Shown piece by piece: positions 31,036-58,284 of a stretch of 64,000 nucleotides of DNA. The position numbers were made by a program, and so were the translations under genes. Each line of letters opens with the position of its first letter. The first letter of the stretch is position 1. The stretch is from assembly GCA_034667685.1 (NCBI GenBank), contig JAXDQU010000106.1, forward strand, positions 11,610 to 75,609. The letters are read 5' to 3'. This DNA comes from Thermoplasmata archaeon. GTDB lineage: Archaea > Thermoplasmatota > SW-10-69-26 > JACQPN01 > JAJPHT01. The notes below the pieces were generated by a model. That model was not told where the DNA came from, searched no databases, and was given only the letters and a program-made list of their open reading frames with translations.

Positions 31036-31347
31036 CGGCGCGCGTCGAGAAGCCGCACCGAAGGGTTATGCGCCCCCGGTGGATTGCGCCTTGCGAGGCT
31101 GTGTCATGGGCATCCGGAGCGAGACGGCGGCGTTCGCCGCGGGCGGCCTGGCGCTGATCGGCGCGTGCGTGCTCCCCTTCACCGCGGCGTGCCTCGCCGC
31201 CTGCGGCATCGCGCTCTCCGTGGGCGAGGTCCTCGTCGCGCGGCGCGCCCTCGTGGGCGCCTGAGCCGGACCGCGGCAACCGTTCGGGTGCAGCGCGCGA
31301 ACTTGCATCTTCGCAGGTTTGGGTCGCGGCAGCGAGGCACAACCCCC

Positions 31348-32364
31348 ATGCGCCGCTTCCTTGCCCTCAGCTTGCCTGCCATCCTGCTTCTCTCGGGCGT
31401 CACGCTCGTCGCGTCGAACGCCGCCGCGTCGGACCAGCTCTGGGACTGCCAGAGCCTCCTCAACGATGACGGCACCTGCGCGGGCTCCGTCTGCGCGGGC
31501 AACGGCGGCTGGGGCGAGTGCGCGCCGCAGACGACCGAGAAGGTCTGCACGCAGGGCCACGCGCCCTGCCAGGGGCTCGACGTCCTGTGCGTCTACGGCC
31601 CCAAGGTCAACGAGTGCCTGATGGGCTGCGCGTGCTACATCGGGGGCGCCGCCACCACGCCCCAGCCGTGCGTCGACTGCCCCACGTACCCCATCGTGTG
31701 CGTCTCCGGCGTCACGGCCGGCACGTGCGGCGACGGCGACGACGTGTGCGTCTCGATCGGCACGCTGCCGCGCCACTGCGAGGACCTGCCCGGCACGACG
31801 TGCAACGTGCCGTGCCAGCAGCACGTGGAGTGCGTCGTGTTCGTGGGCTCCGGCGCCGCGGCCGCGACGTGCTTCGTCGATGGCCGCGAGGTCGGCCCCG
31901 TGCAGACGTGCGACACGTGCGCCGTCCTCTTCGGCGTCACCTGCCAGGTCGGCACGGACGCGAACGCCTGCGACGGCGTGAGCCCGCCGCCCTGCGCGTG
32001 CATCCCGGCGAGCCAGCCCCAGCCGATCCCCGTCGCCCTCTGCGTGCGCAGCGTCAACGCGGCGCACTGCACCTGGGCCGGCCAGGACCACCCCGCGTGC
32101 GTCACGATCAGCCAGCAGGTCCCGCAGTGCCTGCCCGACCCCGGCGTGGTCTTCACCTGTGGCGACCTCGCGCCCGCCTGCTCCGACCCGACGAACCCGT
32201 GCGCGTGGGGCTGGATCGAGTGCGGGCCCAGCGGCCTGCCCCCGGTGCGCGCCGCGTCCCCGGTGGAGTGCATGGAGTACTACTGGTCGCAGGACTTCGG
32301 CCCCGTGAGCGTCACGATGCGCGACTCGTGTCACGTCTCGGTCGAGCAGCACGTGCTGGCCTAG
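31348..32364 (+). CDS. large secreted Cys-rich protein (~50 Cys)
   Basis: Signal peptide MRRFLALSLPAILLLSGVTLVASNAAAS, then 310 aa with many Cys pairs (CAGSVCAGNGGWGEC, CTQGHAPCQGLDVLC, CLMGCAC...). Confidence 0.5.
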   Translation: MRRFLALSLPAILLLSGVTLVASNAAASDQLWDCQSLLNDDGTCAGSVCAGNGGWGECAPQTTEKVCTQGHAPCQGLDVLCVYGPKVNECLMGCACYIGGAATTPQPCVDCPTYPIVCVSGVTAGTCGDGDDVCVSIGTLPRHCEDLPGTTCNVPCQQHVECVVFVGSGAAAATCFVDGREVGPVQTCDTCAVLFGVTCQVGTDANACDGVSPPPCACIPASQPQPIPVALCVRSVNAAHCTWAGQDHPACVTISQQVPQCLPDPGVVFTCGDLAPACSDPTNPCAWGWIECGPSGLPPVRAASPVECMEYYWSQDFGPVSVTMRDSCHVSVEQHVLA

Positions 32365-32387
32365 AGCGCGACCAGGCGGGAGCCATC

Positions 32388-33212
32388 CTATCGGACCGCG
32401 ACCGGCTGGCCGTCCTTCTCCCGCGGTGGCGCGCGCTGCGGGCGAACGACCTCCAGGTGAGCGCCCGGCGCGATCCCGACCTCGGAGAGGAGGCGCGTGT
32501 CGCGCTCCATGCCGTGCTCCTCGGCCCATCGTGTGCCCATCTCCGGCAGCGGGGCTCCGTTCGCGCGCAAGGCCCAGCGCCGGCCGTAGGTGAACGGCGG
32601 CAGCCGCGCGTGCGCCTTGCTCAGGCGCGCCCACAGGTCGTCCAGGAAGTCGGCGCACGTGGTCTCCTTGCTCCACGGCACGAGCCAGCCGCCCGCCTCC
32701 GGCCCCAGGAGCGGCGTGGCGTCCACCGCGAGGAAAGCGGTTTCGCGCACGTTCGCCGTGACCTGCTCGATGGCGTGCCGCATGACGGCGGAAGCGGCCG
32801 AGGCGTTGCCCGGTCCCGCGAGCGCTTCGAGCGTGTCGCTGGACGTGAGCGTCAACTCCAGGGAGCGGCGCATCTCGTCGAGGATCTCTCCTCCGTCGGC
32901 GGGCGAGCGCGCCATGGCTTGGGCGTAGGCGTTCACGTCGGTGTCCTTGAAATCGGCCGGCGTGTAGAACACCTTGTTGTTCTTCCAGAGGATGAGGAAG
33001 AAGCACGCCGCCACGCCGGTCGCAAAGAACATCGCGAAGAGGAGCGAGGCCCATTGGACGGCGCCCGTGGTCGTCGTCAGCGCGTAGGCGAACACGCCCT
33101 CCACCAGCGCGACGAACAGGCCGATGACCCAGAGCGGGCTGAGCTGATGGCTCGCAGAAGGAAATCCCGGCACGGCGCTCGCCGCCACGCCAGCAGGGCC
33201 GCGCCATTTCAA
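32388..33212 (-). CDS. hypothetical membrane protein (2 N-terminal TM helices)
   Basis: 274-aa ORF with TM helices LWVIGLFVALVEGVFAYAL and LLFAMFFATGVAACFFLILW followed by a soluble domain. No family recognised. Confidence 0.4.
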   Translation of the reverse strand: MKWRGPAGVAASAVPGFPSASHQLSPLWVIGLFVALVEGVFAYALTTTTGAVQWASLLFAMFFATGVAACFFLILWKNNKVFYTPADFKDTDVNAYAQAMARSPADGGEILDEMRRSLELTLTSSDTLEALAGPGNASAASAVMRHAIEQVTANVRETAFLAVDATPLLGPEAGGWLVPWSKETTCADFLDDLWARLSKAHARLPPFTYGRRWALRANGAPLPEMGTRWAEEHGMERDTRLLSEVGIAPGAHLEVVRPQRAPPREKDGQPVAVR

Positions 33213-33228
33213 GGCGGCAGGTGGACTG

Positions 33229-34401
33229 TTATCCGATCACGAGCGTCTCCTTCTCCGGCTGCCAGCCGGGCCCGAAGCGGTCGAGCCGGTAGGGCTTCGG
33301 GTCGACGGGCGGCTGGCGCCCCAGGATCAGGTCGGCGACGATGCGCGTCGTCATGGGGCTCACCATGAAGCCGTGGCCGGAGGCGCCGTTGAGCTGGAGC
33401 AGGTTGTCGACGCCGGGCGTCGGGCCGAGGATCGGCTTGTTGTCCGGCGTGACGTCGTACGCGCCGGCCCACTGGCGCATCACCTTGACCTCGCCCAGCG
33501 TGGGCAGGACGTCGAGGAGGGCGCGCGCGACGCGCTTGGTGAAGTCGAAGCTGCTCGCGAAGTTGACGCCGGGCTTCTCGCCGGGCGTGCCGATGCCGCA
33601 GACCAATTCGCCCCGCATGTCCTGGCTCGCGTAGAGGCCGTTGCGCAGGTCGACGACCATCGGGTCGAGGAACGGCTTCAACGCCTCGGTGACGAGGATC
33701 TCGTGGCGCACCGGCGTGTTGGGAAGCTCCACGCCCGCGAGCGCGGCCACCTCGCGGCTCCAGCACCCCGCGGCGTTGACCACCGTCTCGCACGCCACCC
33801 GTCCGCGCGTGGTCTCGACCGCCACGATGCGGCCCCCCGAGGTCTCGAAGCCGGTGGCGCCCGTGAAGGTGCGCACGTCGACGCCCAGCTCGACGCAGCG
33901 CTTGGCGAGCCCCTGCACGACGGCCCACGGGAAGATGATGCCGTCGCCCGGATGATAGCTCGCGGCGACGAGGCCCTCCAGGTTCAGCTCGGGCACCAGG
34001 ACGTGCGCCTCGGTGGGCTCGACGTAGCGGCTGGGCACGCCGTTGGCGTTGTGGAACTTGACGACGTCGCGCAGCGCGCGCGCCTTCTCCTCGTCGTGCG
34101 CGAGGAAGAGGTAGCCGCCCTGCCGGAACCAGACGTTGAAGCCCAATTCCTGGCTCATGCTGCGGAACATCGGGATGCTCTCGCGCGCCAGGACGAGGTT
34201 GTCGCCCGTGCCCCACTGCGCGCGCACGCCGCCGCCGTTCCGGCCGCTGGCGCCGTGCAGGAGATAGCTTTTCTCCAGGACGAGGACGTCGGTGACGCCG
34301 GCCAACGCGAGGTGGCGCGCGAGCCCCAGGCCGTTGACGCCGCCCCCGACGATCACGACCTGATATCGTTCCCGCAGCGGGCCCTCGGTGGTGAACCTCA
34401 C
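33229..34401 (-). CDS. FAD-dependent oxidoreductase, sarcosine oxidase beta / HcnC / proline dehydrogenase beta-like
   Basis: GTG start. Dinucleotide-binding YQVVIVGGGVNG. DAO-family blocks (HGASGRNGGGV, GLYASQD..GE, GASGHGFM). Confidence 0.7.
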   Translation of the reverse strand: MRFTTEGPLRERYQVVIVGGGVNGLGLARHLALAGVTDVLVLEKSYLLHGASGRNGGGVRAQWGTGDNLVLARESIPMFRSMSQELGFNVWFRQGGYLFLAHDEEKARALRDVVKFHNANGVPSRYVEPTEAHVLVPELNLEGLVAASYHPGDGIIFPWAVVQGLAKRCVELGVDVRTFTGATGFETSGGRIVAVETTRGRVACETVVNAAGCWSREVAALAGVELPNTPVRHEILVTEALKPFLDPMVVDLRNGLYASQDMRGELVCGIGTPGEKPGVNFASSFDFTKRVARALLDVLPTLGEVKVMRQWAGAYDVTPDNKPILGPTPGVDNLLQLNGASGHGFMVSPMTTRIVADLILGRQPPVDPKPYRLDRFGPGWQPEKETLVIG

Positions 34402-34667
34402 TCCGCTTCCCCCGCGAGGTAGCGCAGCGGGATGGGCTGGACGGGCGCGCGGAAGGTGATCGCGCCCAGCGCCCCGGCGGGCTGGCCCGTCTCCTCGGCG
34501 AGCATCTGGCGCGCGAGCGTCAGGCACGTCTTCCCCTGGCAGGGGCCGGTGGCGAAGCCCGTGAGGCGCTTGAGGCTCTCCAGGTCCGTGCAGCCCGCGG
34601 CGATGGCCTCGCGAAGCTCGACGTCGTTGACGTCCTCGCACGCGCATACGATGCACTTGGGGGTCAA
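34398..34667 (-). CDS. small (2Fe-2S)-binding BFD-like subunit
   Basis: 89 aa with CIVCACEDV...GPCQGKTC. TTG start 7 nt after GGAGG, overlapping the upstream stop (TTGA). Its stop overlaps the downstream GTG (GTGA). Confidence 0.5.
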   Translation of the reverse strand: MTPKCIVCACEDVNDVELREAIAAGCTDLESLKRLTGFATGPCQGKTCLTLARQMLAEETGQPAGALGAITFRAPVQPIPLRYLAGEAE

Positions 34668-35950
34668 GCGCGTGCCTCCTTCGCGGCGGCGCGCCCGGCC
34701 GCTTCGCCCTGGCGCAGGCGCTCGGCGAGGGGCGCGTCGCCCAGCACGCTGCCGCACGCGAAGACGCGCGGCGCCGGCGCGGGGCTTGCGGGCGCGAGGG
34801 CCCATCCCTTCGGCGTCAGCGCGCCGCCCGCCTGCTGCACCAATTCGACGCGCGGCGTGGCGTTGCCCGCGGCGAGCACGCAGTCGGCCTCCATGCGCTC
34901 GCCGCTTGATAGCACGACGGCCTTGACGTGGTCGGAGCCTTCGATGGCCGAGACGTCGGCGATCCGGGCCTCGGCGCCCGCCTTGCGCAGGTCGTCCGCG
35001 GCCTGCTGGCCCCAGCCCTCCGCCGAGGTGACGACGACGCGGCGCCCGGCGAGGACGCCGTGGCGGTGGAGGAGGATCAACGCGGCGCGCGCGCCCATCA
35101 CACCAGGAAGGTCGTTGCCCGGGAGGAGCGGGGGGGTCTCGTGGGCGCCGGCGGCGACGACCACCGCGCGGGGGCGGCATTCGAGGATGCGTTCGGCGGT
35201 GAGGATCGCGGCGAGGCCCGGCGCGGGAAGGGCGTCTCCGTGGCCGTCCGTGGGGTAGAGGCCGAAGACGACGCTGCGCGTCAGGACGGGGCCCGCGATA
35301 TCATTCAAGAGAGCGTCGGCCTGCGCGCGCTCGCCCAGGAGGAGCGAGCCCCCCGCGCGGTCGCCTTCGTCCACGAGGGCCACTCGGGCGCCTTCGCGGG
35401 TGGCGGCGCGCGCGGCGGCCAGGCCGCTGGGTCCCGCGCCCACGACGAGGACGTCGGCGTCGAGCTGGCCGATGGCGGGGCGGCGCGGGCCCATCGGCCG
35501 AAGGTCGGGCAGTTTGCCAAAGCCGGCCATGCGGCGCACGATCGCGTGGTGGATCGGGCGCAGCCACGGCGCGCGCGCGAACTGGCCGTGCACGTCGAGC
35601 ACGCGCGGGTAGGCGCGGTCGATCACCCCGAAGAAATCGCGCCGCGCGCTGGGGAACGCGTTCTGCGTCTCGACGACCATGCCATCATGGGCGGGCGTGA
35701 CGCAGGCGCGCACGTTGGGCACGCCGTCCACGCGCATCAGGCAGCCCGCGCACTTGCCCGTGCAGCAGAAGAGCCCGCGCGGCCGGTGGTACTTGATCGA
35801 GCGCATCAGGGTGCGCTCGCCGTGCGCGTGCAGCGCTGCGCCGACCGTCTCGCCCTCGAACGCCCGGATGGCGCGCCCGTCGAGGCGCAGCGTGATGGGC
35901 TTCCCGCGGAACGCCGAAGGGCCGGGCTCGACGCGGAGGTCGTGGGCCAT
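34664..35950 (-). CDS. SoxA/HcnB-like NAD(P)/FAD-binding subunit with N-terminal 2Fe-2S motif
   Basis: CCTGKCAGC cluster, then Rossmann VLVVGAGPSGLAAA and a second nucleotide-binding region. Confidence 0.65.
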   Translation of the reverse strand: MAHDLRVEPGPSAFRGKPITLRLDGRAIRAFEGETVGAALHAHGERTLMRSIKYHRPRGLFCCTGKCAGCLMRVDGVPNVRACVTPAHDGMVVETQNAFPSARRDFFGVIDRAYPRVLDVHGQFARAPWLRPIHHAIVRRMAGFGKLPDLRPMGPRRPAIGQLDADVLVVGAGPSGLAAARAATREGARVALVDEGDRAGGSLLLGERAQADALLNDIAGPVLTRSVVFGLYPTDGHGDALPAPGLAAILTAERILECRPRAVVVAAGAHETPPLLPGNDLPGVMGARAALILLHRHGVLAGRRVVVTSAEGWGQQAADDLRKAGAEARIADVSAIEGSDHVKAVVLSSGERMEADCVLAAGNATPRVELVQQAGGALTPKGWALAPASPAPAPRVFACGSVLGDAPLAERLRQGEAAGRAAAKEARA

Positions 35951-35970
35951 CTTGGGCGCCGCAGCCGGAG

Positions 35971-35992
35971 GGGGCTACTTGGGGGTTGCGGG
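35971..35992 (+). repeat. 22-bp direct repeat GGGGCTACTTGGGGGTTGCGGG, copy 1
   Basis: Exact 22-mer also present at ~42779..42800. Located between the soxA-like start and the archaeosortase 3' end. Confidence 0.85.
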
Positions 35993-36029
35993 ACGTTTGG
36001 CCGGGTGGGGGGATGGCCGTTCCGCTCGT

Positions 36030-37127
36030 TCAGGCATGGTCCGCGGCGCGCGGCGCATCGTACCTGGCCCGCATGCGGCTGCGCCAGACAAGCCACCCCA
36101 ACATGGGCAGGCCGATGTCGCCCACCATGTAGAGCGTATAGAGGCCGGGCGTGACCGCGCCCTGGGTCACCAGGCCCGTCGCGACGAACGCGACCACGAT
36201 CCCGCCCGCGACGACCGGCAGCGCGACGCACGCGACGATGCCGGCGAGCTTGTCACGCATGGGCACGCCGCGCGCCGCGAGGACGAGCGATCCGAAGCCG
36301 ATCATGGCGACGAGGAGGAGGCGGCCGCGGTCCAAGGCATTGAGCCGCTCGGGCGAGACGCGGCCCGTCCAGAACACGTGGGCCAGCGGCGCGGCGACGG
36401 CGAGGACGGCGCGCTCGAGCAGGACATCGGCGCCGACGCGCAGCGCAATCCATGTGATGGCCAGGAAGAGAGCGATGAAGGCGAGGACGGCCCCCAGACG
36501 CGCGGCGAGGGCGCGCAGGCCCATGTCGTGGGCGCTCTGGAGCGCGCCGAGGGAGAGCCAGAGGACGAACCCCGCCGCGCCGATGAGGATCACGCCCGCC
36601 TGCCAGAGGACCACGTGCGCGTAATCGAACCACGCCGGCGCGTTCACGCCGACCCATCCCAGGGTGACCAGGCGCGCGACGTTCACCACGAGCACGAACG
36701 GGAGCGCGGCGAGGGTGCCGATGGCGCGCCAGCGGACCGGGGCGGGGTGAGCGACGATGGCCGCGACAAGCATGATGGCGACGGAGTAGGCGGTGCAGCC
36801 CAGGCTGATGAAGAAAGAGAAGGAGCCCGCGAACGTCACCTGGGGCCCGACGCTGCGCGCGGGCAAGCCCACCAGGCTCGCGCTCCAGGCGACCAGCGCC
36901 GCCGTGCCGTCCTGGAACGGCGGGCCCTCGTCCGGGAAGAGGAGGTACACGACGAGCCCGACGATGCTGAAAGCGAGAAGATATCGTCCGGCCACGCGCG
37001 CCTGCTCGCCCTTCGCGGCGCGGCGCAGCGACGCGTGCAGCCTCGACACGCTGGGGAGCCCAAGGTAATCGAGCCAGCGCACCTCATTGGGTCGTCGTCG
37101 TCTCGTGCAGACACCCCTGCGCGACAT
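36030..37127 (-). CDS. archaeosortase/exosortase family transpeptidase
   Basis: Polytopic membrane protein with a Cys-containing SLGCTAYS region and the downstream VVNVARLVTLGW (N-x-x-R) motif of exosortase/archaeosortase families. Start at MSRRG; a longer ORF extends to 37220. Confidence 0.55.
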   Translation of the reverse strand: MSRRGVCTRRRRPNEVRWLDYLGLPSVSRLHASLRRAAKGEQARVAGRYLLAFSIVGLVVYLLFPDEGPPFQDGTAALVAWSASLVGLPARSVGPQVTFAGSFSFFISLGCTAYSVAIMLVAAIVAHPAPVRWRAIGTLAALPFVLVVNVARLVTLGWVGVNAPAWFDYAHVVLWQAGVILIGAAGFVLWLSLGALQSAHDMGLRALAARLGAVLAFIALFLAITWIALRVGADVLLERAVLAVAAPLAHVFWTGRVSPERLNALDRGRLLLVAMIGFGSLVLAARGVPMRDKLAGIVACVALPVVAGGIVVAFVATGLVTQGAVTPGLYTLYMVGDIGLPMLGWLVWRSRMRARYDAPRAADHA

Positions 37128-37397
37128 GGGGTCACGCGGCCGCGCGTCCTTGGAGCTTGTGGAGCATTGCTTTCTTTCATCGAGAGGAACAGACAACCCC
37201 CCACGTGCTTTTGGAAACAATTCGTTATGTTAAGCTTCCTCGGTGAGCAGGTATCTAGCCTGCTCCCACGAGGCTGCATGGCACGATATACTTCCGCAAG
37301 TCACAACGATGGTCTAGTCTGTTACTTGCATGATGATATCCTTCGTGCCCCGGGCGACAGCTCGCCCGAGTGTGGAGGAATCCAATTGGCCAAAGAC

Positions 37398-39173
37398 ATG
37401 CAATCTCCGATCCGAACGCGGCTTCGCGGCAACGGCGTCCGGACGCTGCTGCTCGCGCTCGTCCTCATCGCGCCGCTCTCTCTCGCGGTCGCCGCGACGC
37501 AGCCGCAGGACGTCACCGTGCCCGCTGGGACGACCCTCACCGTGGCGGCGCCCCTCTCCGTGGGCACGCTCACCGTGCTGGGCACGTTGAAGATGGACGC
37601 GCCCGGCGACTTGCGCATCGTCGCGCAGAGCATCCACGTCGGGCCCCACGGCGTAATCGCTGGCTTCGCCGGCGCGCCCGGGCGAGACGCGCACGGCCTG
37701 GGCGCGACGGGAGCGCCAGGCCTCGACGGCGGCTCCGTGTACCTGACCGCACAGTCGGTCGAGGTGGACGAGGGCGGCTTCATCCTGGCGGGCGCGGGCG
37801 GCCACGGCGGCAACGCCGAAGGGCTCGGCCTCGTGACCGCAGGCCCGGGCGGCCAGGGCGGCTCCGTCGTCGTCCAGGCCGTCACGAGCCGGCTCGACGG
37901 CGCGCTCGTGCCCGGGGACGGCGGCGACGGCGGCAACGCGGCCGAGGTCGTCCATGACCTCGTGCTCCAGGGCGCGACGGTGGCAGGTAACGGTGGCGAC
38001 GCGGGCTGGGCTCTCCTCAATGGGCGCCCGGTCGCGCCGAGCGCCGCGCCGCCCCCGATCGTCGCGGAAGTCATCGACCTCGTCTTCTACTGCGGAGTGC
38101 CGCTCCCCCTGACTCCCGTAGGGGCTCCCGGGGCGCCGGGCGTCGTTACGCGCGGCGGGCGTGGCGGCGACGCGTGCATGAGATCCTTCAGCGCCGATGG
38201 CCTGCCGTGCGTCGGTGATGCGGGCGATGGCGAAACCCCCCACCCCACCCACGCGTCGGCCACGGCGGGCAACGGCGGCGCCGGCGGCCCGACCCAGCCC
38301 GGCGGCGCGGGCGGCACGGCCGTCGCTTGGGCCCGCTCGGGCAACGGGTCCGACGGATGCCCGGGCGCGACGACGGGCGGCGCGGCCGGCAATGGCGCGG
38401 GCGCCACGGCCGACGCGCAAGGCGGCCGGGGCGGCCAGGGCGGCCACTCCGTCGGCCTCACCGCCGGCGGCAGCGGCGGTGGCGGCGGCAGCGCGTTCTC
38501 GGAAGCATACGGCGGCATCGCCGGCAACGGCGGCAGCATCACGACGGCGATCGGCACCGGCGGCGCCGCCGGCATCGGCGGGGGCGCCTCGGCCACCGCG
38601 GTGGCCGGCGATGGCGGCAGCGGCGGCGACAACAACTCGGGCATCGGCGGTGGCGGCGGTTCGGCGAACGCGACGGCGATCGCGGGTCACGGCGGCAACG
38701 GCGGCAACGCCGGGCCCGGCCTGACTGGCGGCACCGCGGGCCTCGGCGGCTCCGGCGGCAATCCCTCGTCCTCGGCCCGTGCGGGCAGCGGCGGTGCAGG
38801 CTCGATCGGCGGTGGCGGCGGCGACGCGAAGGCGACCACCGGCGGCCCGGGTCAGAGCCCGTACGGCGGCGACGCGGGCAACATCGGCACGGCTCAGCCC
38901 GGCGGCAGTGGCGGGAGTTGGAGCGCGGTCGCCATCGCAGGCGATGGTGGCGACGGCTGCTCGAGCCCGACCCACACGCCCGTCCCGGGCAACGGCGGCC
39001 AGGGCGTGGCGTCCGGCCCCACGGGCGGTGCGCCCGGAGGCAACGGCACGCCCCACGGCCAGGCCGGCTCGAGCCTCCAGACATCCTCCGCCAACGGGAG
39101 CTCCGGCGGCATCGACGGACCCACGTGCGCGACGGGCATGCACGCCCCGCCGCCTTTCCAGGACGTCTTCTAG
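37398..39173 (+). CDS. secreted Gly-rich GGxGG-repeat protein 1
   Basis: ATG 14 nt after GGAGG. Signal peptide MQSPIRTRLRGNGVRTLLLALVLIAPLSLAVAA. ~100-aa N-terminal domain, a Cys-containing block, then ~350 aa of GGxGG-type repeats (GGNGGAGG, GGRGGQGG, GGDGGSGG). The antisense frame encodes only Pro/Arg-rich junk. Confidence 0.55.
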   Translation: MQSPIRTRLRGNGVRTLLLALVLIAPLSLAVAATQPQDVTVPAGTTLTVAAPLSVGTLTVLGTLKMDAPGDLRIVAQSIHVGPHGVIAGFAGAPGRDAHGLGATGAPGLDGGSVYLTAQSVEVDEGGFILAGAGGHGGNAEGLGLVTAGPGGQGGSVVVQAVTSRLDGALVPGDGGDGGNAAEVVHDLVLQGATVAGNGGDAGWALLNGRPVAPSAAPPPIVAEVIDLVFYCGVPLPLTPVGAPGAPGVVTRGGRGGDACMRSFSADGLPCVGDAGDGETPHPTHASATAGNGGAGGPTQPGGAGGTAVAWARSGNGSDGCPGATTGGAAGNGAGATADAQGGRGGQGGHSVGLTAGGSGGGGGSAFSEAYGGIAGNGGSITTAIGTGGAAGIGGGASATAVAGDGGSGGDNNSGIGGGGGSANATAIAGHGGNGGNAGPGLTGGTAGLGGSGGNPSSSARAGSGGAGSIGGGGGDAKATTGGPGQSPYGGDAGNIGTAQPGGSGGSWSAVAIAGDGGDGCSSPTHTPVPGNGGQGVASGPTGGAPGGNGTPHGQAGSSLQTSSANGSSGGIDGPTCATGMHAPPPFQDVF

Positions 39174-39259
39174 GAGGAGACGGCAAGAGCGTGACATCCG
39201 GAGCCGTGCGTTCCGCGCCGCACGGCTCCTCTTTTCCCTTTTCCCCAGGAGAACGACGC

Positions 39260-40909
39260 ATGGACCCCGGACGCAAGCCCCGTATCCCGCGTGCATTTGC
39301 CATCGCGTGCGCCGCGCTCGTCGCCCTGACGAGCCTCGGCGCCGCCTCGCTCGCGCAATCCGCGGGGCCCGACATTGTCGTCGCGCGGGGCGTGACGCTC
39401 ACGCTCGATGCGCCCGCGCACCTGCGCCATCTCCTCGTCCAGGGCGAGCTGGTCCTCGACCTGCCGCCCCATGCGGTCCTCGCTGCCGATGACGTCCGCG
39501 TCGCCTCGTCCGGCGCGATCCGCGGCGCCAACGGCGCGGACGCGCCCGCCGCGCGCGGCCTCGACGCGTCTGGCCTGCCAGGCGCGCCCGGCGCGAGCGT
39601 CGCGCTGCGCGTCGGCTCGCTGGTGGTCGAGCGCGGCGGCGCGATCGTTGCCGGCTCGGGCGGGCGCGGCGGCGACGCCCTCGGATCCGGCCTCCTCCGC
39701 GGCGGCCCCGGAGGCGCCGGCGGCTCGCTCCTCCTCGACGCGGCGCAGAGCAGTGTCGAGGGGCGCCTCGCGGCGGGCTCGGGTGGCGAAGGCGGCGACG
39801 CGATCGCGCTGCGCGCGCCGGCGACCGCGCAGGGCGGACGCGGCGGCGACACGGGCGTCGCGCTGCTCGACGGCGCGCCGATCCCCATGACGAATGATAT
39901 CATGCCGTCCCCGCGCTTCGCGGCCGGGTGCAGCTCGCCGCCTCTCGGCGCGCCCGGCGCGGCCGTCGTCGGCGGCGCGGGCGGATACGCCTGCATGCGC
40001 GTCGAGAGCGAGGCCGGCGCGCCCGGCCCCGCGTGCGGCCCCGGCACGGAAGGCGGGCCGGCCCTCGCCCTCGCCATCGGCGGCGACGGCGGCGACGGCC
40101 TCGCGCCTGGCGCCCCCGGAGGCGCCGGCGGCAGCGCGTTCGCGCAGGCCGACGCCGGGCAAGGCGGCGCGGGCGCGGACTGCATCACGGGCAGCGGCGG
40201 CGCCGGAGGCGTTGGCGGCCGGGCCCTCGCCCAGGCGCGCGCGGGCCAGGGCGGCCAGGGAGGCGTGGGCGCGGCGGGCGGCGCCGGCGGACTCGCCTTC
40301 GCGCAGGCGCGCGGCGGACCCGGTGGCGCAGGCGGGTCGGGCGCGCTCGCGGGAGGCGCTGGCGGCGTCGGCGGCGCGGCGGACGCCTCGGCGCTTGGCG
40401 GCGCGGGCGGCGCGGGCGGAGCGCTCGGCGCGCCCGCAGGCGGAGGCGGCCCCGGCCGCGCGGACGCTTCGGGCGGCCACGGCGGCGCGGGAGGCCGCGG
40501 CCAGACGGCGGGCGGGAATGGCGGCGAAGGAGGCGCAACCTCCGCCAACGCCACCGGAGGCGGCGGCGGGGCCGGGGATTCCGGCGGAGGCGGCGGACCG
40601 GGAATCACCAGCATCGACGCGCGCGGCGGCGACGGCGGCGCGCCCGATGGCCTGGGCGGAGCGGGAGGCGCGTGGCGCTCCATCGCCACCGGAGGCGCGG
40701 GCGGCGACGGGTGCGACGGCGGCCAGGGCGCGAACGGCGGCTTCGCGGTGGCCGGCACGCCGGGCCCAGGCGTCTCGGGCGGATCGAACACGGAAGGTGG
40801 CACGGCTCCCCCGGGCGCCGGCAGCGCCACCGCGACGCAAGGCCGGGCCGGAGCCGCGGGCGGGCCGGGCTGCATGTTGTTAGCGATCGACTGGAGGACA
40901 CCAAGATGA
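39260..40909 (+). CDS. secreted Gly-rich GGxGG-repeat protein 2
   Basis: Signal peptide MDPGRKPRIPRAFAIACAALVALTSLGAASLA. Paralogous N-terminal domain and Cys block. Long GGAGG/GGQGG repeat region. Confidence 0.55.
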   Translation: MDPGRKPRIPRAFAIACAALVALTSLGAASLAQSAGPDIVVARGVTLTLDAPAHLRHLLVQGELVLDLPPHAVLAADDVRVASSGAIRGANGADAPAARGLDASGLPGAPGASVALRVGSLVVERGGAIVAGSGGRGGDALGSGLLRGGPGGAGGSLLLDAAQSSVEGRLAAGSGGEGGDAIALRAPATAQGGRGGDTGVALLDGAPIPMTNDIMPSPRFAAGCSSPPLGAPGAAVVGGAGGYACMRVESEAGAPGPACGPGTEGGPALALAIGGDGGDGLAPGAPGGAGGSAFAQADAGQGGAGADCITGSGGAGGVGGRALAQARAGQGGQGGVGAAGGAGGLAFAQARGGPGGAGGSGALAGGAGGVGGAADASALGGAGGAGGALGAPAGGGGPGRADASGGHGGAGGRGQTAGGNGGEGGATSANATGGGGGAGDSGGGGGPGITSIDARGGDGGAPDGLGGAGGAWRSIATGGAGGDGCDGGQGANGGFAVAGTPGPGVSGGSNTEGGTAPPGAGSATATQGRAGAAGGPGCMLLAIDWRTPR

Positions 40910-42723
40910 TATCAGGACACGGAGCCCGAAGGACAAACCGATCGACCCGGCTCGCTGCGACCTGCGCGGTCGCGTTGGGCCTCGTTCTCCTGACGCCGAT
41001 CGTGGGCAGCTTCGGGACCAATGCGCCCGGGATGGACGCGAGCGTCCCTGAGGGCGCGGTGACGACGCTGCAAGGCGCGCGCTCGTTGCACGACATCGAC
41101 GTGCTGGGCACGCTCGTGCTCGACCTCGCCCCCGGCCAGACCCTCGACGCGGTCCATGTGCACGTGGGCGGCCACGGCGCGATCGTGGGTGCCGCAGGCG
41201 CGGCGGGCGCAGACGCGCAGGGACGCGACGCGCAGGGCGCCGCAGGCGCGGAGGGCGGCCGCGTGGTGATCCAGGCGGACTCCATCACGCTCGACGAAGG
41301 AAGCCTCGTGCAGGGCGGCCGTGGCGGTGAGGGCGGCGCGGCGACTGGCTACGGCGTCGTGGTCGGCGGCAACGGAGGCACGGGCGGCTTCGTGCGCGTG
41401 ACCGCGCGGGAGCGCAGCGTGCACGGCCTCATCCTGCCCGGCTCGGGCGGCGACGGCGGCGCGGCCGTCGAGATCGTCAACGCGTCGCAGGTCGTCGGCA
41501 TGAGCGTCAAGGCCGTCGGCGGGCGCGGGGGCGACACGGGCCGCGCGTGGCTCAATGGCGTCCTGGTCCCGGCCAAGCTGCCCGACCTGCCGAAGCCGCC
41601 GCTTGTCTCGATCAATCCGCCGCTCCAGTGCCCCGGCGGCGCGGCGCTCATCATCGGCTCGCCCGGGTTGCCCGAGGGCGGCCACGGCGGGACCGCGTGC
41701 ATGCTCAGCATCGGCGCCCCGGGCGCCAACGGGTCGGGCTGCGCTGGCTCGACGGGCGACGCGGGCTCGACGGGAGACGCGGCAGCGGCTGCGGCGGTCG
41801 GCGGACGCGGCGGCGACGCCGCGCTTCCGGGCGTGCCCGGCGGCGGGGGCGGCGACGCGTGGGCGATCGCGCGCGGCGGCAACGGCGGCGACGGAAACAG
41901 CTGCCTGACCGGCGGCGCGGGTGGCAACGGTGGCGGCGCACAAGCGGAGGCCGTCGGAGGCGAGGGCGGCATGGGCGGGACGCTCGGCGCCCTGGGCGGC
42001 TTGGGCGGCTGCGGCTACGCAGAGGCCAAGGGAGGGCTCGGCGGCACGGGAGGCTCGGGCTCGACCACCGGAGGCGCTGGCGGCTCGGGCGGCAGCGCGT
42101 CCGCCACGACGGACGGCGGCGACGGCGGGCCCGGCGGCCTGCCCAACGGCCTGGCCGGCGACGGCGGCTGCACGTTCACCTTCGGGGCGGGCGGCAACGG
42201 AGGCCGCGGTGGGGCCTGCACCAGCATGTCCCTCTGCACGGCCGGCACGGGCGGCAGCGCGGGCCAGCCCACCGACGCCAAGTCGCGCGGCGGACGCGGT
42301 GGCGACGGCGGGCGCGGAGGGAATGGCGGCGCGGCGCACAGCGAGGTTGACCCGCGCGGCGGGGACGGCGGCGTGCCCAATGGCCTGGGCGGGCTGGGCG
42401 GCAGCGTGAGCGTCCTGGCGGCGGGCGGCGACGGCGGGAACAGCCTCACCTGGCCCGAAGGGGGACTGGGCGGCGAGGCGAGCACGCTGATCCCCCAGGG
42501 GAGCCTCGATGGCGGCCTGGGCGGCGACGGCACCCCCGCGCTGGGCGGGGTGGTTCTCGCCGACCAATCCAAGCGGGGCGAGGATGGGGTCGGGACCGGT
42601 GGGCCTGGGCCCTCCGTTGGCGGCGCACCCACGCTCTCATCCTGGGGCGCGGCGCTCATGGCCGCCGCGCTGCTTGGCGTGGGCGTCGCCTTCACGCGGC
42701 CCCGAAGGCCCGATCAGCCCTGA
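40906..42723 (+). CDS. secreted Gly-rich GGxGG-repeat protein 3 with C-terminal TM anchor
   Basis: ATG overlaps the stop of protein 2 (ATGA). Signal peptide, paralogous N-domain, GGxGG repeats, then C-terminal WGAALMAAALLGVGVAFTRPRRP (hydrophobic helix plus basic cluster, sorting-signal-like). Confidence 0.55.
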   Translation: MISGHGARRTNRSTRLAATCAVALGLVLLTPIVGSFGTNAPGMDASVPEGAVTTLQGARSLHDIDVLGTLVLDLAPGQTLDAVHVHVGGHGAIVGAAGAAGADAQGRDAQGAAGAEGGRVVIQADSITLDEGSLVQGGRGGEGGAATGYGVVVGGNGGTGGFVRVTARERSVHGLILPGSGGDGGAAVEIVNASQVVGMSVKAVGGRGGDTGRAWLNGVLVPAKLPDLPKPPLVSINPPLQCPGGAALIIGSPGLPEGGHGGTACMLSIGAPGANGSGCAGSTGDAGSTGDAAAAAAVGGRGGDAALPGVPGGGGGDAWAIARGGNGGDGNSCLTGGAGGNGGGAQAEAVGGEGGMGGTLGALGGLGGCGYAEAKGGLGGTGGSGSTTGGAGGSGGSASATTDGGDGGPGGLPNGLAGDGGCTFTFGAGGNGGRGGACTSMSLCTAGTGGSAGQPTDAKSRGGRGGDGGRGGNGGAAHSEVDPRGGDGGVPNGLGGLGGSVSVLAAGGDGGNSLTWPEGGLGGEASTLIPQGSLDGGLGGDGTPALGGVVLADQSKRGEDGVGTGGPGPSVGGAPTLSSWGAALMAAALLGVGVAFTRPRRPDQP

Positions 42724-42778
42724 GCACCGCTCGGACGCATGGCCCGCGCCACGGCGGGATGCACCTCGGCTCGGCCGC

Positions 42779-42800
42779 GGGGCTACTTGGGGGTTGCGGG
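42779..42800 (+). repeat. 22-bp direct repeat GGGGCTACTTGGGGGTTGCGGG, copy 2
   Basis: Exact copy of 35971..35992, ~55 nt downstream of the Gly-rich protein 3 stop. Confidence 0.85.
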
Positions 42801-43142
42801 TGCGGGCGTCTCCCGCTCGCGGTTGATGAGCCGCACGGCCGAGGCGCGCGTCTTGGCGCTGGGGGGCCACGCGATGTCGCGGCGCCCCTTCGCGTCGCGC
42901 TTGACGTCGTGGTCGGCGCGGGCGGGCGCGGGCGCGGCGACGGGGGCATCCCCGGCGCGGACCGCGCGCGGCGCGTGCATCGCGCGCATGACGTCCGCGC
43001 TGCGCAGCCACGCCTTGCAGCCCACGCAGGCCATCCCTCCGGCGCGGCTGAGCGTCACGAGGTGGGCCGCGTTGGCCCCCGCGCAGACGGGGCACACGAA
43101 CGGGATCAGGACGGGGGCGCGCGGAGGTGAGACGTTCAACAC
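42783..43142 (-). CDS. possible small zinc-ribbon protein
   Basis: 119-aa ORF with CPVC...CVGC (four Cys in a zinc-ribbon arrangement) near the N-terminus. Compositionally ordinary otherwise. Could be a GC-frame artefact. Confidence 0.25.
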   Translation of the reverse strand: MLNVSPPRAPVLIPFVCPVCAGANAAHLVTLSRAGGMACVGCKAWLRSADVMRAMHAPRAVRAGDAPVAAPAPARADHDVKRDAKGRRDIAWPPSAKTRASAVRLINRERETPAPATPK

Positions 43143-43173: not shown

Positions 43174-44682
43174 TTATAAGGCAGACGGGTCCGCGAGGGG
43201 TGGGAGCGCCTCCAGCGCGCCGCGCAGCGCCGGCCCTTCCGCCAGCGTGCCCACCGTGAGCACGTTGCCCATCTTGTGGACGGTCGGGTCGGTGACGCAT
43301 TTCTCGTTGCAGACGTCGACGAAGACGGCGTAGGGGCGGCCCTGGGGGTCGATGGCGGCGTCGATGAAGTCGTCCATCCCGCCGCAGCGCGTCTTGCCGC
43401 ACACGCCGCGCGCGAGGGGGTTGGCCGGGTCGTTGGCGGTGACGGTGGTGGCGACGGGGTGCGCGTCCTTCGCGTCGGTCATGACGGTGAGGTAGCCGTT
43501 CCACGAGGCGTTGGCCCACTCGGGCGGGTCCTGCGCGGGGCTGGCGATGTCGGTGACCGTGCCCTCGGGGCCGGTCTGCTTGCCCGCGTACCCGCCGGGG
43601 ATCGTCGTGGCGACGTAGGCGAACACGAGGCGGCCGTCGGCGCCCGCGGCGAGGGCGGGGAACGCGGCGGCGGTGACCTCGGGGGGCGAGACGACGAGGG
43701 CGGGCGCCCACGTGACACCGTGGTCCTTGCTCCAGGCGTAGGTGGGCAGGCCCTTGTCGCTGATCCATCCCGCGTACACGGTGCCGTTGTCGTCGACGGC
43801 GAGGTTCACGTCGTGCACGACGCCGCTGTTGATCACGGCGGAGCCCTTCGCGATGACGTGCGAGGTCCACGTGAGGCCGTCGTCCTCGGTGACGCCGATC
43901 GTGGGGTTGCGGTTGCAGCCGCCGTGCGCGAGGAAGACGCGCCCGTCCTTGTCCGTGACCGGGTGGCCCAGCGAGTCGCCCGGGCAGTCGGTGGGGTCGG
44001 TCGTCTGCGGGAAGACCGTCACGACGGGGCCGAACGTGTAGCCGCCGTTGAGCGAGGTGGCGCACTCGGTCGTGACGCCGGTGTTCGTGCACGAGTAGAC
44101 GACATTGGGATAGAGCGGGCTCACGGGGAGCATGCGCGGCTTGGCGGCGACCATGCTCTGGTGGTCCGCGATGGGGACACCCGCGCCCACGCCGCAGCCC
44201 ACGGGGCTCGTGGTCCACGTGGCGCCCGCGTCGTCCGTCCACGAGAGGATCGCGCACTCGGCGTCGTTCTCGTTCTTGTAGACGCGCCCCGTCGTCGGGT
44301 CGAGGTACATGTACGGGTCGAGCGTCTGCGGCGGCGCGTGCTGGCCCGTGGGCAGCGTGGGCCCCACGTCCTTCCACGTCAGGCCGTGGTCCTCGGAGCG
44401 CATGATGGTGGGCTCGCCAGCCTGGAACGCCTCGGCGAAGATGCGCCCCTTGCTATCAATGCCCAGCGTGGGCTCGCCGCCCGAGGCGCCGGTGGAGAGC
44501 TGCAGGCCGCGGGCGGGCAGGGGCGCGGCGGCCGGGATCGCGCCGCCGCCGAGGACGTGGACCTCGCCCGCGAGCGAGGCGGGGAGCGTCGAGGCGCTCT
44601 GGACGGGCTGGGGGACGGCGCCGGGCGCGGCGCAGCCGGCGAGCAGGACGGCCAAGGCGAGGAAGACGAGCGCGAGACGCAT
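43174..44682 (-). CDS. BNR/Asp-box repeat (sialidase-like beta-propeller) lipoprotein
   Basis: Lipobox-like LAVLLAGCAAPG. Four Asp-boxes (SEDHGLTW, TDDAGATW, TEDDGLTW, SKDHGVTW). Start at MRLALVFLAL. Confidence 0.65.
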   Translation of the reverse strand: MRLALVFLALAVLLAGCAAPGAVPQPVQSASTLPASLAGEVHVLGGGAIPAAAPLPARGLQLSTGASGGEPTLGIDSKGRIFAEAFQAGEPTIMRSEDHGLTWKDVGPTLPTGQHAPPQTLDPYMYLDPTTGRVYKNENDAECAILSWTDDAGATWTTSPVGCGVGAGVPIADHQSMVAAKPRMLPVSPLYPNVVYSCTNTGVTTECATSLNGGYTFGPVVTVFPQTTDPTDCPGDSLGHPVTDKDGRVFLAHGGCNRNPTIGVTEDDGLTWTSHVIAKGSAVINSGVVHDVNLAVDDNGTVYAGWISDKGLPTYAWSKDHGVTWAPALVVSPPEVTAAAFPALAAGADGRLVFAYVATTIPGGYAGKQTGPEGTVTDIASPAQDPPEWANASWNGYLTVMTDAKDAHPVATTVTANDPANPLARGVCGKTRCGGMDDFIDAAIDPQGRPYAVFVDVCNEKCVTDPTVHKMGNVLTVGTLAEGPALRGALEALPPLADPSAL

Positions 44683-44765
44683 GCGCGCGCACGGCCGGCG
44701 GGCACACAAAGGCGTTGTGGTGCTGTCGCAACAATCCTCCACAACGATGATCGGCGCGCGCCCCG

Positions 44766-45131
44766 ATGTCCGAGGCGGTGTCGGTTGTGCGGACCCCTCT
44801 CTTCCTCGGCATGCTCCTCGTGACGTCCCTCGTCGCCCTCGCGCCCTCGGGCAACGCCGCCGCGAACGGCTGCGTCGACGCGGGCAGCGGCATCACCGCG
44901 TGCGGCGCGGCCGTCGCGGTCGGGTGCGGCGTCAGCACGGGTGTGGGCGCGGCGACCGGCATCGTCGCGTGGACGCTCGTGAGCAGCACCGAATCGGGCT
45001 CGAAGTCGTTCAGCCTGCGCGCGCCCGCCTTCGCCGGCGCCGCCGACGCGCCGTGCACCACGGCCTCGTGCACGACGGGCTTCCTCTACGCCAACGGCGT
45101 GCTTGTCTCCGAGAGCCAGACCGTGTGCTGA
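44766..45131 (+). CDS. small secreted Cys-containing protein
   Basis: Hydrophobic leader (LFLGMLLVTSLVALAPSGNAAA) then ~90 aa with 7 Cys, ending SQTVC. Gly/Ala/Thr-rich. Confidence 0.4.
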   Translation: MSEAVSVVRTPLFLGMLLVTSLVALAPSGNAAANGCVDAGSGITACGAAVAVGCGVSTGVGAATGIVAWTLVSSTESGSKSFSLRAPAFAGAADAPCTTASCTTGFLYANGVLVSESQTVC

Positions 45132-45244
45132 GGCTCAGAGCCGCTTCTGAGCCGCGGAGAGAAGGCGAAGCGTCCTCGCACCCAGGGGCCGCGCCCCCTT
45201 GACAAGGTACGCGGGCGGTGTTCACGCGGCGGAGCCCCCTGACC

Positions 45245-46072
45245 TCACGCGATGGGGTGCGAACTGACGTCGTTGACGGCCTTCTTGAGCCGCTTCAGGT
45301 CGAGTCTCTTCCTTGCGTGCGCATCGCGCTGCCAGGCGTCCAACGAATCGATGACCGTGTGCGCCTCGACGAGGTAGCATTCCGCGGCCTTCCACGTCAG
45401 GAGCTGATCCCCCTCCCTCCACGTGTGGACGAGCCAGATGCCGTTCTCGTCGTAATCGCGCGCCCACATCGAGTGCCCGCCGCCCGAGTTGGGCAGCCAG
45501 TCGCCGATCGCGGGCTGCCCGACGGGAATGTCCCAGGCCTTTGGGGGCGAGATGGACTCGAACGCCTTCGGGAGCGCAAGGCACACCGCGATCCCATGGG
45601 CGCCGCTCGAGGCGATCGCGCGGCGAACCTCCTGCTGGTCGAGGTGGTTGACCCTGACGTACGCGTCGATGGTCAGCGCGCGTCCGCTGGCGTCGCGGAT
45701 CGACAGCTCGGGGCGGCGCCAACGGTCGAGCGCGTCGGTCTCGTACGCGCCCTCGTCGTTGCCCCCGTAGAGGTCCGCGCACATCTTCTCGAACACGCGA
45801 AGCGGCTCGTCCTCGGCAATCTGCGGGACGTGCCCCGTCTCGAGCCGCTCCATGCGCAGCATGGCGACGGCCTGCTTCGCGATCGTGCAATCGTTGTGCT
45901 CTGTGTTGCCGTAGGCATGCCTGGCGAAAGGCGCCCTGCGGTTCCAGAAGCCCGTCGCCTTGGGAGGCTTCACGGTCCCCCGCGCGAAGGCTCCGAACAT
46001 CAGGGCTTTCGCCGACGTCTTCGGGGGCAGGCATCCGGTTCTCCTGTTCGCGAGTGGTGTTCGCATCATGGT
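45245..46072 (-). CDS. hypothetical protein, possible papain-like/CHAP-like Cys-His hydrolase
   Basis: ~275 aa. Candidate nucleophile in GNTEHNDCTIAKQ and His in GGGHSMWARDYDENGIWLVHTW. Assignment is speculative. Start at MMRTPL, abutting the upstream stop. Confidence 0.35.
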   Translation of the reverse strand, partial: TMMRTPLANRRTGCLPPKTSAKALMFGAFARGTVKPPKATGFWNRRAPFARHAYGNTEHNDCTIAKQAVAMLRMERLETGHVPQIAEDEPLRVFEKMCADLYGGNDEGAYETDALDRWRRPELSIRDASGRALTIDAYVRVNHLDQQEVRRAIASSGAHGIAVCLALPKAFESISPPKAWDIPVGQPAIGDWLPNSGGGHSMWARDYDENGIWLVHTWREGDQLLTWKAAECYLVEAHTVIDSLDAWQRDAHARKRLDLKRLKKAVNDVSSHPIA

Positions 46073-46821
46073 TCTTCCTTCAGCGTGATCTCGGGTCGAG
46101 CGGGCGCGCGCGGTGGCGGCGCAACGGGCCCTGGGACGCGGAGCGCGCCGCGCGTGGCGTCTTGCCAAGAACGCAGCACGTCGGGCGCGATGGGCTCGGG
46201 CAGGATGGGCGCGAGGTCCTTCGCGAGCCGCGCGGGATCCGCGGCGAGGAAACCGGCAGGGTCCTTGATCGCGGTCTTTGCGATCGCTTCCAGGAGCGCC
46301 GGAGGGATCGTCGGTAGCGCGAGGATCGCCGCCTTGTCGAGCGCGCGATCGAGGCTCGCGCCAAGCCTGAGGTTCGCGAGCGCTGCGCGCCCCGCGGCGG
46401 TCTGCGAGATGCGCATCAGGTCGTCCACCGAGAAGACGCGATGCGCGGCAAGCTTCTCAATCGCCTGATGCGGGAGCCCAAGCGTCGAGAGCGGCTGCGG
46501 CGCGCTCGGAAGCGGCGCGCGTGGCGCGTCTTGCGAGGGCCGCACGCGCAGGCGAAGCGTCGCGCCGCCCGGCGCCGCGTCGTTCGAGAGGCTCACGAGG
46601 ACTTGGCCCAGCTCGTCGAGACGCGCGCGGACGGGCAGCGTCAACTCCAGGTCGTCCAGGATGTAACAGCCTGACGCTCTCGGATGCCGCGCCAGCTCCT
46701 CGTGGATGCCCATCGCGGCGGAGGCGACGGTTTCGCCCAGCTCGTGCAGGACGACCTCGGAAGGGAGCGACGAGAGAGGCTCAACCGGCACGCCCGTCAC
46801 CTCCCGACGCCAGAAAGGCAA
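46066..46821 (-). CDS. hypothetical protein (possible HhH-like helical C-terminal region)
   Basis: 251-aa ORF. Region LGLPHQAIEKLAAHRVFSVDDLMRISQTAAGRAAL resembles a helix-hairpin-helix. No confident family. Confidence 0.35.
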   Translation of the reverse strand: MPFWRREVTGVPVEPLSSLPSEVVLHELGETVASAAMGIHEELARHPRASGCYILDDLELTLPVRARLDELGQVLVSLSNDAAPGGATLRLRVRPSQDAPRAPLPSAPQPLSTLGLPHQAIEKLAAHRVFSVDDLMRISQTAAGRAALANLRLGASLDRALDKAAILALPTIPPALLEAIAKTAIKDPAGFLAADPARLAKDLAPILPEPIAPDVLRSWQDATRGALRVPGPVAPPPRAPARPEITLKEEP

Positions 46822-46873
46822 GGCCGGAATGAGACGACCGCGGCTGCGCGAGAACCGCCGCCATCGTCGCGCC

Positions 46874-48061: not shown

Positions 48062-48202
48062 TCCTCGCCGCGAGTCCGGTATGCGTGGACCTATGGGCTC
48101 CTCGGGTTTACGCCTTGCAGCGTCCATACGGTTGCTATAGGCGTTCCGAGCGGCAACGCCGACCATGCAAGGCCGAAAGCAGGGTCTCCGCGCGAAGGCG
48201 CG

Positions 48203-56368: not shown

Positions 56369-56369
56369 G

Positions 56370-58156: not shown

Positions 58157-58284
58157 GGTCTGTCGAGGGTGTATACGCGCGGGCATATCAAGACATTGCT
58201 CCGCAAGATTGGTCATCGCCACTGTCCAGAAGTCGCCATTCTGGAAGGATTTATGACTCCGCTGCGCATCCTCGATCATTGGCC

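Follow-up and report, generated by a model that had tools for sequence, protein, structure and literature searches.

The window analysed here is a stretch of 64,000 nucleotides from the genome of a high-GC soil Thermoplasmata archaeon (contig JAXDQU010000106.1; 72.2% GC). It carries an archaeosortase-family gene next to three tandem genes for secreted Gly-rich proteins (G1, G2, and G3), and this block lies between two exact copies of a 22-bp sequence in direct orientation. The block is located between a BNR/sialidase-like gene and a soxA-like gene, both of which belong to a backbone shared with related genomes, and the interval between these two genes is referred to below as the slot. The features of the region are as follows, with positions counted along the window.

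34664..35950, minus strand: soxA-like Fer2_4/FAD subunit, belonging to the conserved backbone on the downstream side of the slot, with orthologues in the related loci L005, L006, and L022
35971..35992, minus strand: left copy of the 22-bp repeat, an exact match, 21-42 nt upstream of the soxA-like ATG
36030..37127, minus strand: sortase, 365 aa, exosortase/archaeosortase-family intramembrane cysteine protease of the long form, matching TIGR04178
37128..37397, no strand: AT-rich divergent intergenic region, 270 bp, 54.4% GC compared with 72.2% for the window
37398..39173, plus strand: G1, 591 aa, predicted secreted Gly-rich beta-solenoid paralogue without a C-terminal sorting tail
39260..40909, plus strand: G2, 549 aa, Gly-rich paralogue whose C-terminus looks like the deleted remnant of a sorting tail
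40906..42723, plus strand: G3, 605 aa, the sole Gly-rich paralogue with a complete tripartite sorting signal
42625..42720, plus strand: sorting signal of G3, IPTL-CTERM-like (APTLSSWG, a hydrophobic helix, RPRRPDQP)
42779..42800, minus strand: right copy of the 22-bp repeat, overlapping the last five codons and the stop of a 119-aa open reading frame (ORF)
42783..43142, minus strand: ORF119, 119 aa, CxxC...CxxC (zinc-ribbon-like), lineage-specific, outside the repeat-bracketed cassette and within the same variable slot
43174..44742, minus strand: BNR/sialidase-like protein, belonging to the conserved backbone on the upstream side of the slot, with Pfam BNR_2 below its cut-off

The divergent arrangement of the sortase and the three Gly-rich genes, together with the AT-rich region between them, had been described in the initial annotation and was confirmed at the same coordinates; the paralogues were found to be 44-46% identical to each other, and the spacer at 37128..37397, to judge by its sequence, presumably contains the promoter of the sortase gene and that of a G1-G2-G3 operon. 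Of the two repeat distances given there, the one of about 55 bp on the G3 side was exact (the right repeat begins 55 bp after the G3 stop), and the one of about 45 bp on the sortase side was too long (the left repeat ends 37 bp past the sortase stop). The G+C content at third codon positions (GC3) and the codon pattern were uniform across the block.

The sortase and its Gly-rich partners

The sortase passed the family signature hidden Markov model (HMM) TIGR04178 with 37.9 bits (cut-off 23) and failed every curated subfamily model, the two best being ArtB (TIGR04144), which scored highest with 51.4 bits against a cut-off of 150, and XrtH (TIGR04177), with 48.5 bits against 86. ArtA was not among its HMM matches at E <= 0.01. 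The protein consists of a catalytic core (residues ~44-192) and a multi-helix C-terminal extension (~200-365; ~170 aa, roughly five helices). A word-index search with the sortase returned a single relative (P0002, 42% identity), which carries PF09721, and a profile search of 1.84 billion representatives produced 2,096 matches at E <= 1e-3, five of them at E <= 1e-30. The long architecture of 330-410 aa, with core and C-terminal extension, was present in about 40-50 of the best 150 of the 2,096 matches. Eight long homologues were checked, and all of them passed the signature model and missed the subfamily cut-offs, with XrtH scores of 49-73. Residues C111, N149, R152, and H171 were invariant across alignments of 38-45 long forms, and C111, R152, and H171 correspond to the Cys/Arg/His triad that was proposed for the exosortase/archaeosortase family (bioRxiv 10.1101/2023.06.07.544157). 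In the AlphaFold2 (AF2) model (predicted local distance difference test score, pLDDT, 86.8; predicted template modelling score, pTM, 0.83), the enzyme is polytopic and helical, with a small beta-sheet at residues 90-106, N-terminal to the catalytic Cys; the C-terminal extension contributes about five more helices. No solved structure was related to the sortase by sequence, and a Foldseek search with the model returned only generic helical membrane proteins.

G1, G2, and G3 matched no family in Pfam or NCBIfam. Their basic and hydrophobic N-terminal leaders are taken to be signal peptides, on inspection by eye and from the helix in the AF2 model. The tail of G3 (APTLSSWG, a transmembrane helix, and RPRRP) was the only one of its kind in six-frame translations of the window, and no hidden sorting tails for G1 and G2 were present in other reading frames. 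Its best match was IPTL-CTERM (TIGR04174), at 20.2 bits for a cut-off of 20.5. The C-terminus of G2, encoded at 40850-40909 (…GGPGCMLLAIDWRTPR), can be aligned with the last residues of the G3 tail (…TRPRR), a pattern that looks like a deletion of the hydrophobic helix. The stop codon of G2 and the start codon of G3 overlap in ATGA, a sign that the translation of the two genes may be coupled.

The contig that encodes P0002 (L004) carries Gly-rich paralogues directly upstream of its sortase gene and on the same strand. Their tails begin with APVLSSAG and VPALSPAG, continue with a transmembrane helix and a basic end, and match IPTL-CTERM best (15.6 and 19.2 bits, respectively). Because tail-bearing Gly-rich paralogues are paired with a sortase here as well, the pairing of enzyme and target is conserved, as in 'dedicated' systems. 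The Gly-rich gene at 431-2282 of this contig is split between two frames near 1800, by a frameshift or a sequencing error, and the tail is found in the second frame. Other members of the Gly-rich family in metagenome-assembled genomes (MAGs) of Thermoplasmatota mostly have neither a tail nor an adjacent sortase.

The AF2 model of G3 is confident (pLDDT 82, pTM 0.77) and consists of beta-structure throughout, repeating every ~25 residues in the GGxGG region. No solved structure was related to G3 by sequence, and the only Foldseek match was a local one to 7jjv, a Gly-rich antifreeze bundle from springtails, with template modelling scores (TM-scores) of ~0.1. A G3 homologue (P0009) has a precomputed match to PF05268, the Gly-rich phage Gp38 adhesin family, which, taken with the match to 7jjv, hints at possible polyglycine-II-type packing in part of the repeat region. 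G1, G2, and G3 are concluded to be elongated beta-solenoid surface proteins, probably adhesin-like or components of the envelope. The closest known counterparts are autotransporter passengers (IcsA, Ag43, pertactin), TpsA proteins (EtpA, HMW1), tapirins, and curli CsgA, together with the Gly-rich proteins of the polyglycine/polyproline-II type (springtail antifreeze 7jjv, phage gp38). The predicted solenoid resembles the passenger domains of adhesins; G3 differs from these counterparts in having no sequence-family membership, in TM-scores of ~0.1, and in its anchoring signal of the sortase type, and it has no beta-barrel translocator or two-partner secretion domain.

In dedicated exosortase/archaeosortase systems, the enzyme gene is adjacent to the gene of its target (Haft, bioRxiv 10.1101/2023.06.07.544157). 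The module in the window resembles these systems (Haft et al.; TIGR04178) in having a polytopic membrane enzyme whose Cys, Arg, and His residues are invariant, an adjacent target, a target signal made up of a motif, a transmembrane helix, and a basic cluster, and a target family that includes homologues without the signal. It differs from them in that the enzyme scores below the curated cut-offs and has an extra C-terminal half, and in that two of the three adjacent paralogues are without the signal. Judged by these sequence features, the module is classed as a dedicated exosortase/archaeosortase system that is nearest to XrtH/IPTL-CTERM and ArtB and outside all curated subfamilies. The initial annotation had recognised no comparable sortase/GGxGG-protein module from characterised archaea, a view that did not hold, as the arrangement of a dedicated enzyme plus substrate is a standard one, with ArtB and XrtH as the nearest enzymes and IPTL-CTERM as the nearest tail.

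XrtH, which we take to be the partner of IPTL-CTERM targets, is one of the two best matches of the enzyme, and IPTL-CTERM is the best match of the G3 and L004 tails; the window enzyme differs from XrtH in its length (365 aa compared with a 158-position model), its score below the cut-off, and its archaeal host. An IPTL-CTERM protein has been described as a surface-layer (S-layer) protein in Methylomirabilis (PMC8671808). The likeness to ArtB lies in the top enzyme score (51.4 bits), the archaeal host, and the small catalytic core, and the differences from ArtB/VPXXXP-CTERM lie in that score being far under 150, in tails without the VPxxxP motif, and in the extra C-terminal half. From ArtA/PGF-CTERM the module differs in that its tails contain no PGF.

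The module may be pictured to work as follows. The G1-G2-G3 genes and the sortase gene would be transcribed divergently from the AT-rich spacer, and the three Gly-rich proteins would be exported by means of their N-terminal signal peptides and fold into long beta-solenoids. The C-terminal helix would hold G3 in the membrane, and the sortase (Cys111/Arg152/His171) would cut at APTLSSWG and, by analogy with ArtA, leave G3 anchored at the cell surface. G1 and G2, having lost the tail, might be released or assembled on G3.

The 22-bp repeat and the slot in related genomes

The 22-mer GGGGCTACTTGGGGGTTGCGGG was found in exactly two copies in the window, both on the plus strand (35971-35992 and 42779-42800), and no further copy with up to three mismatches was present in the window; the expected number was 0 (100 dinucleotide-preserving shuffles), in agreement with the earlier claim that the pair is not due to chance. 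The genes for soxA, the sortase, ORF119, and BNR are all on the minus strand, where the sequence of the repeat reads CCCGCAACCCCCAAGTAGCCCC. The identity breaks off sharply at 22 bp, with unrelated flanks and no extension beyond this length. A 9-nt core, CCCAAGTAG, occurs in the 64 kb only within the two repeats (0.1 expected). Contigs of metagenomes from the Joint Genome Institute (JGI) were scanned with the 20-mer that is common to the window and the related locus L005, and one copy was found in a 351-kb contig of the relative (L010, from the same organism as L005); the second match (L011) was a chance one, inside an unrelated gene of a low-GC organism. The exact 22-mer itself had no match in the collections of metagenome and genome contigs, which do not include the source contig. 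In the frequency check proposed in the initial annotation, the motif was thus infrequent in the sequence covered, with two copies in 64 kb and one in the 351-kb contig.

On the minus strand, the right copy encodes the terminal PATPK* of ORF119; no gene follows it in this orientation, and the next feature is the 3' end of G3, which runs convergently. Folding of the junctions on both strands gave z-scores of -0.2 to +1.0, no better than shuffled sequence, for hairpin, attC, or terminator structures. Runs of three to six G with short loops, a G-quadruplex-like pattern in this 72%-GC genome, were noted on the plus strand at 35965-36015 and 42775-42812.

Species representatives of GTDB were scanned with the soxA-like protein, and one close relative was obtained, Centralia_MAG_189 (locus L005, JAJPHT010000046.1; 73% GC), the proteins of which are 75-92% identical to those of the window. 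This genome is tagged 'Proteobacteria bacterium' at NCBI, a label that looks wrong given the backbone it shares with the Thermoplasmata archaeon. The backbone genes AK, ASD, BNR, soxA, and soxB are kept in L005, with BNR followed by an 838-bp segment and then by soxA, and the sortase and Gly-rich genes were not found in this 21-kb locus. The region upstream of soxA in L005 contains a single copy of the motif, 20/22 identical and in the same place as the left copy in the window. At the nucleotide level, L005 9953-12808 aligns with window 35992-33233, which places the start of the homology on the outermost base of the left repeat; on the BNR side, the homology ends at 43184, close to where BNR itself ends. 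The BNR orthologues are 78% identical to the window protein in L005 and 59% in L022. In L022 and L023, two more distant loci from forest soil, BNR is followed by a SchA_CurD gene on the opposite strand and then by soxA, and the cassette is absent. One further feature was thus recorded for the slot of these relatives.

L022 11559-11930 (also in L023), opposite strand: SchA_CurD-like gene in the BNR/soxA slot

The sequence AAGTAG is found upstream of soxA in the window, L005, and L022, at -30..-25, -27..-22, and -28..-23, respectively (anchored on the starts MAHD, VPKD, and MAQD). For a gene with a leaderless or short-leader mRNA, an archaeal TATA-like element would be expected at this distance. 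Boxes of the TTAT type were seen at similar distances before other genes of the window.

The 838 bp between BNR and soxA in L005 include a gene of the Exo_endo_phos family (Pfam, 1.5e-11). The 21-kb locus has only two CCCAAGTAG cores (0.01 expected), and they flank this gene, within motif copies at 9146-9166 and 9953-9974. The latter is the copy upstream of soxA; the former, second copy matches the motif at 15/22 positions and lies just past the BNR stop and 22 nt before the Exo_endo_phos start. A third sequence, AACCCCCTCGTAA, resembles the motif less closely and overlaps the stop codon of BNR. The occupants of the slot accordingly differ in the three species, and in two of the three they lie between motif copies. 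The other two indels between the window and L005, at 31246-33232 and 44723-48189, have no direct repeats at their junctions.

The relatives support the earlier proposal that the repeat pair marks the borders of a cassette, which is lineage-specific, as L005 has the backbone without the cassette, a single motif copy before soxA, and a homology breakpoint on the first base of the left repeat. The empty site for which a search was proposed at the same time was recovered in part: L005 and L022 are without the cassette, but BNR is not joined directly to soxA in them, another gene being present in the slot.

Proposed insertion at the soxA-proximal element and competing explanations

Since its position upstream of soxA is conserved in three species, the left copy is the native, promoter-like element proximal to soxA, and the right copy its duplicate on the far side of a block that is absent from the relatives. 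The alternative put forward in the initial annotation, a shared regulatory site or an att-like scar, turned out to be partly true on each side: the repeat is the duplicated soxA-proximal element of the host itself and not a foreign att scar. We regard it as fairly probable that the promoter-like element upstream of soxA was the point of insertion of a dedicated archaeosortase system, with duplication of 22 bp, and that the sortase processes or anchors G3.

According to this explanation, a backbone consisting of the shikimate genes, AK, ASD, BNR, and the soxA operon would have received the cassette just upstream of soxA, so that 22 bp of the soxA element now stand on each side of a 6,786-bp insert. 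The cassette would have arrived by recombination at the 22-bp segment, either of the Campbell type through a short identical segment or as a site-specific reaction catalysed in trans, and the same slot would have taken up different cargo in the relatives. A duplication of 22 bp is compatible with integration of the Campbell type at a short stretch of identity, be it site-specific or reliant on short homology. Recombination at the motif is favoured over a purely regulatory explanation because different occupants lie between motif copies while the other indels have no repeats. The two copies in the window are 22/22 identical and the L005 orthologue differs at 2/22 positions, with flanks that are ~80% identical, so that the duplication is likely to be younger than the species split. 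Together, the sequence comparisons suggest that the cassette was gained in the source lineage and not lost in the relatives.

Several observations weigh against insertion or against its details. The site-specific recombination that had initially been invoked was not borne out: no integrase, recombinase, or transposase was found among the genes from 31 to 48 kb (Pfam, NCBIfam, PHROG), no terminal inverted repeats were seen on inspection of the cassette ends, and the junctions have no significant hairpins. A duplication of 22 bp exceeds the typical target duplications of transposases. The site in L005 is not a clean empty site, as it is without ORF119 and holds another gene, and the comparison draws on one close and one more distant relative, which leaves room for loss in these lineages. 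With regard to the function of the module, G1 and G2 have no sorting tails, and the genes do not form a simple set of one enzyme and three substrates; the tail and the enzyme each score below the curated subfamily cut-offs; and the signal peptides were assigned only on visual inspection and on the helix of the AF2 model. In addition, no tRNA gene that could have served as an integration target was present in the window, Rfam at gathering thresholds gave 0 matches at 33-46 kb, and a plasmid collection gave no match.

The converse explanation, that the cassette is ancestral and the relatives lost it through recombination between the 22-bp repeats, which would then be the substrate of the loss, appears unlikely. 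Direct repeats of this length can mediate a precise deletion that leaves one motif copy before soxA, as in L005, and a related module (L004) is present in the Centralia metagenome from which L005 comes. Nevertheless, L005 and L022 stand at different distances, are both without the cassette, and have different genes in the slot, which requires more events than a single gain; the perfect identity of the window copies, compared with 2/22 differences in L005 and flanks of ~80% identity, argues for a duplication younger than the split; and the origin of the duplication would still have to be explained.

It is similarly improbable that both copies are functional cis-regulatory sites, promoters or operators bound by the same factor, the identity of which is kept by selection while the bracketing of the block is incidental. 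In three species AAGTAG is retained at 22-30 nt before the soxA start, a spacing that suits an archaeal TATA-like element of leaderless or short-leader mRNAs, and in L005 the second, degenerate copy precedes the Exo_endo_phos start by 22 nt. Such a role does not account for the right copy, which has no downstream gene in its orientation and faces the 3' end of the convergent G3, nor for the fact that the motif is used by no other gene in 64 kb, and the coincidence of the L005 homology breakpoint with the edge of the repeat is left unexplained.

An assembly artefact, such as a chimeric join of two genomes, or a chance match is hardly credible: two independent assemblies (JGI 3300044737 and Logan SRR24887406) span both junctions at 100% identity, so that an identical arrangement was obtained twice and a chimera is excluded, a third contig crosses the right junction, neither GC3 nor codon pattern changes along the block, and chance predicts 0 copies in 100 shuffles, to which only the fragmentation of the region in sample 3300044807 could be opposed. 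In that sample, the region is divided among three contigs (L018, L003, and L020), with one break at 35957/35977, on the left repeat, and the right junction assembled through. The break lies in a stretch rich in G runs, where Illumina coverage often drops, and it probably reflects such a drop and not a structural variant. A co-existing variant with an empty site was rejected as its cause, as the right junction was assembled and the geometry of the overlap is unlike a branch in the assembly graph.

The inserted block was also compared with known classes of mobile elements. It resembles att-flanked elements without an integrase of their own (islets of the cis-mobilizable type) in that an exact direct repeat derived from the target brackets the cargo, the block is absent from a relative, and one site holds different cargo; it differs from them in that the target is a promoter-like element and not a tRNA gene, and in that the cassette is known from sequence alone. 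Of the hallmarks of att-type elements, direct repeats of the target are present at both ends and slots without the cassette are present in L005 and L022, each with other cargo, and no integrase or recombinase was found in or beside the element among the genes at 31-48 kb. A DDE transposon or insertion sequence was rejected because there are no terminal inverted repeats and no transposase, and because the duplication measures 22 bp compared with 2-15 bp. An integron gene cassette was likewise rejected, as the junctions have no attC-like fold and no integrase was matched among the roughly two thirds of the called ORFs of the window.

There is a small chance that the conserved element of ~20 bp upstream of soxA is a dedicated recombination site of this Thermoplasmata lineage, at which a recombinase acting in trans repeatedly loads promoter-adjacent cassettes and duplicates the site in each event. 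If so, it would constitute an integron-like or att-like platform without a known integrase or attC, and its cargo would be the sortase module here, the Exo_endo_phos gene in the Centralia relative, and the SchA/CurD gene in the forest-soil relative.

If the insertion explanation is correct, the locus is a clean example of a surface-protein module that behaves as a cassette of the flexible genome, with insertion borders precise to the base that make its excision directly testable, and it indicates that a promoter-proximal element can serve as a duplicated target. The module adds an uncurated long-form branch to the exosortase/archaeosortase family, as well as a previously undescribed family of predicted Gly-rich beta-solenoid targets, so far mainly in MAGs labelled Thermoplasmatota, that offers an entry point to the surface biology of uncultured Thermoplasmatota from soil. 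Current concepts are left unchanged by these findings.

Neighbouring genes

ORF119, at the BNR side of the slot, encodes two CxxC pairs and a basic Pro/Ala-rich tail and has a GC3 of 0.95, with a TTATAA box ~33-38 nt upstream of its GTG. It had no family match in Pfam, NCBIfam, or PHROGs and no counterpart in L005 or L022. The two further indels mentioned above are islets of four genes (44723-48189) and two genes (31246-33232) that are lineage-specific in comparison with Centralia_MAG_189 and without Pfam matches; for two of the genes there was a match in PHROGs, in both cases to a family of unknown function (phrog_19005 and phrog_26238).

The affiliation of the window agrees with its gene content. 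The BNR protein corresponds to an NCBI record named 'Thermoplasmata archaeon', the homologues of G3 and BNR come almost all from Thermoplasmatota MAGs, and DUF7121 and V4R proteins are encoded in the window along with ADH synthase and 3-dehydroquinate synthase II, which belong to the archaeal route to shikimate. The latter two genes form a cluster at 51710-58279 with those for chorismate synthase and a fused 3-dehydroquinate dehydratase/shikimate dehydrogenase; this cluster corresponds to the ADTH pathway by which archaea reach shikimate, and its synteny extends to L005, L021, and L022.

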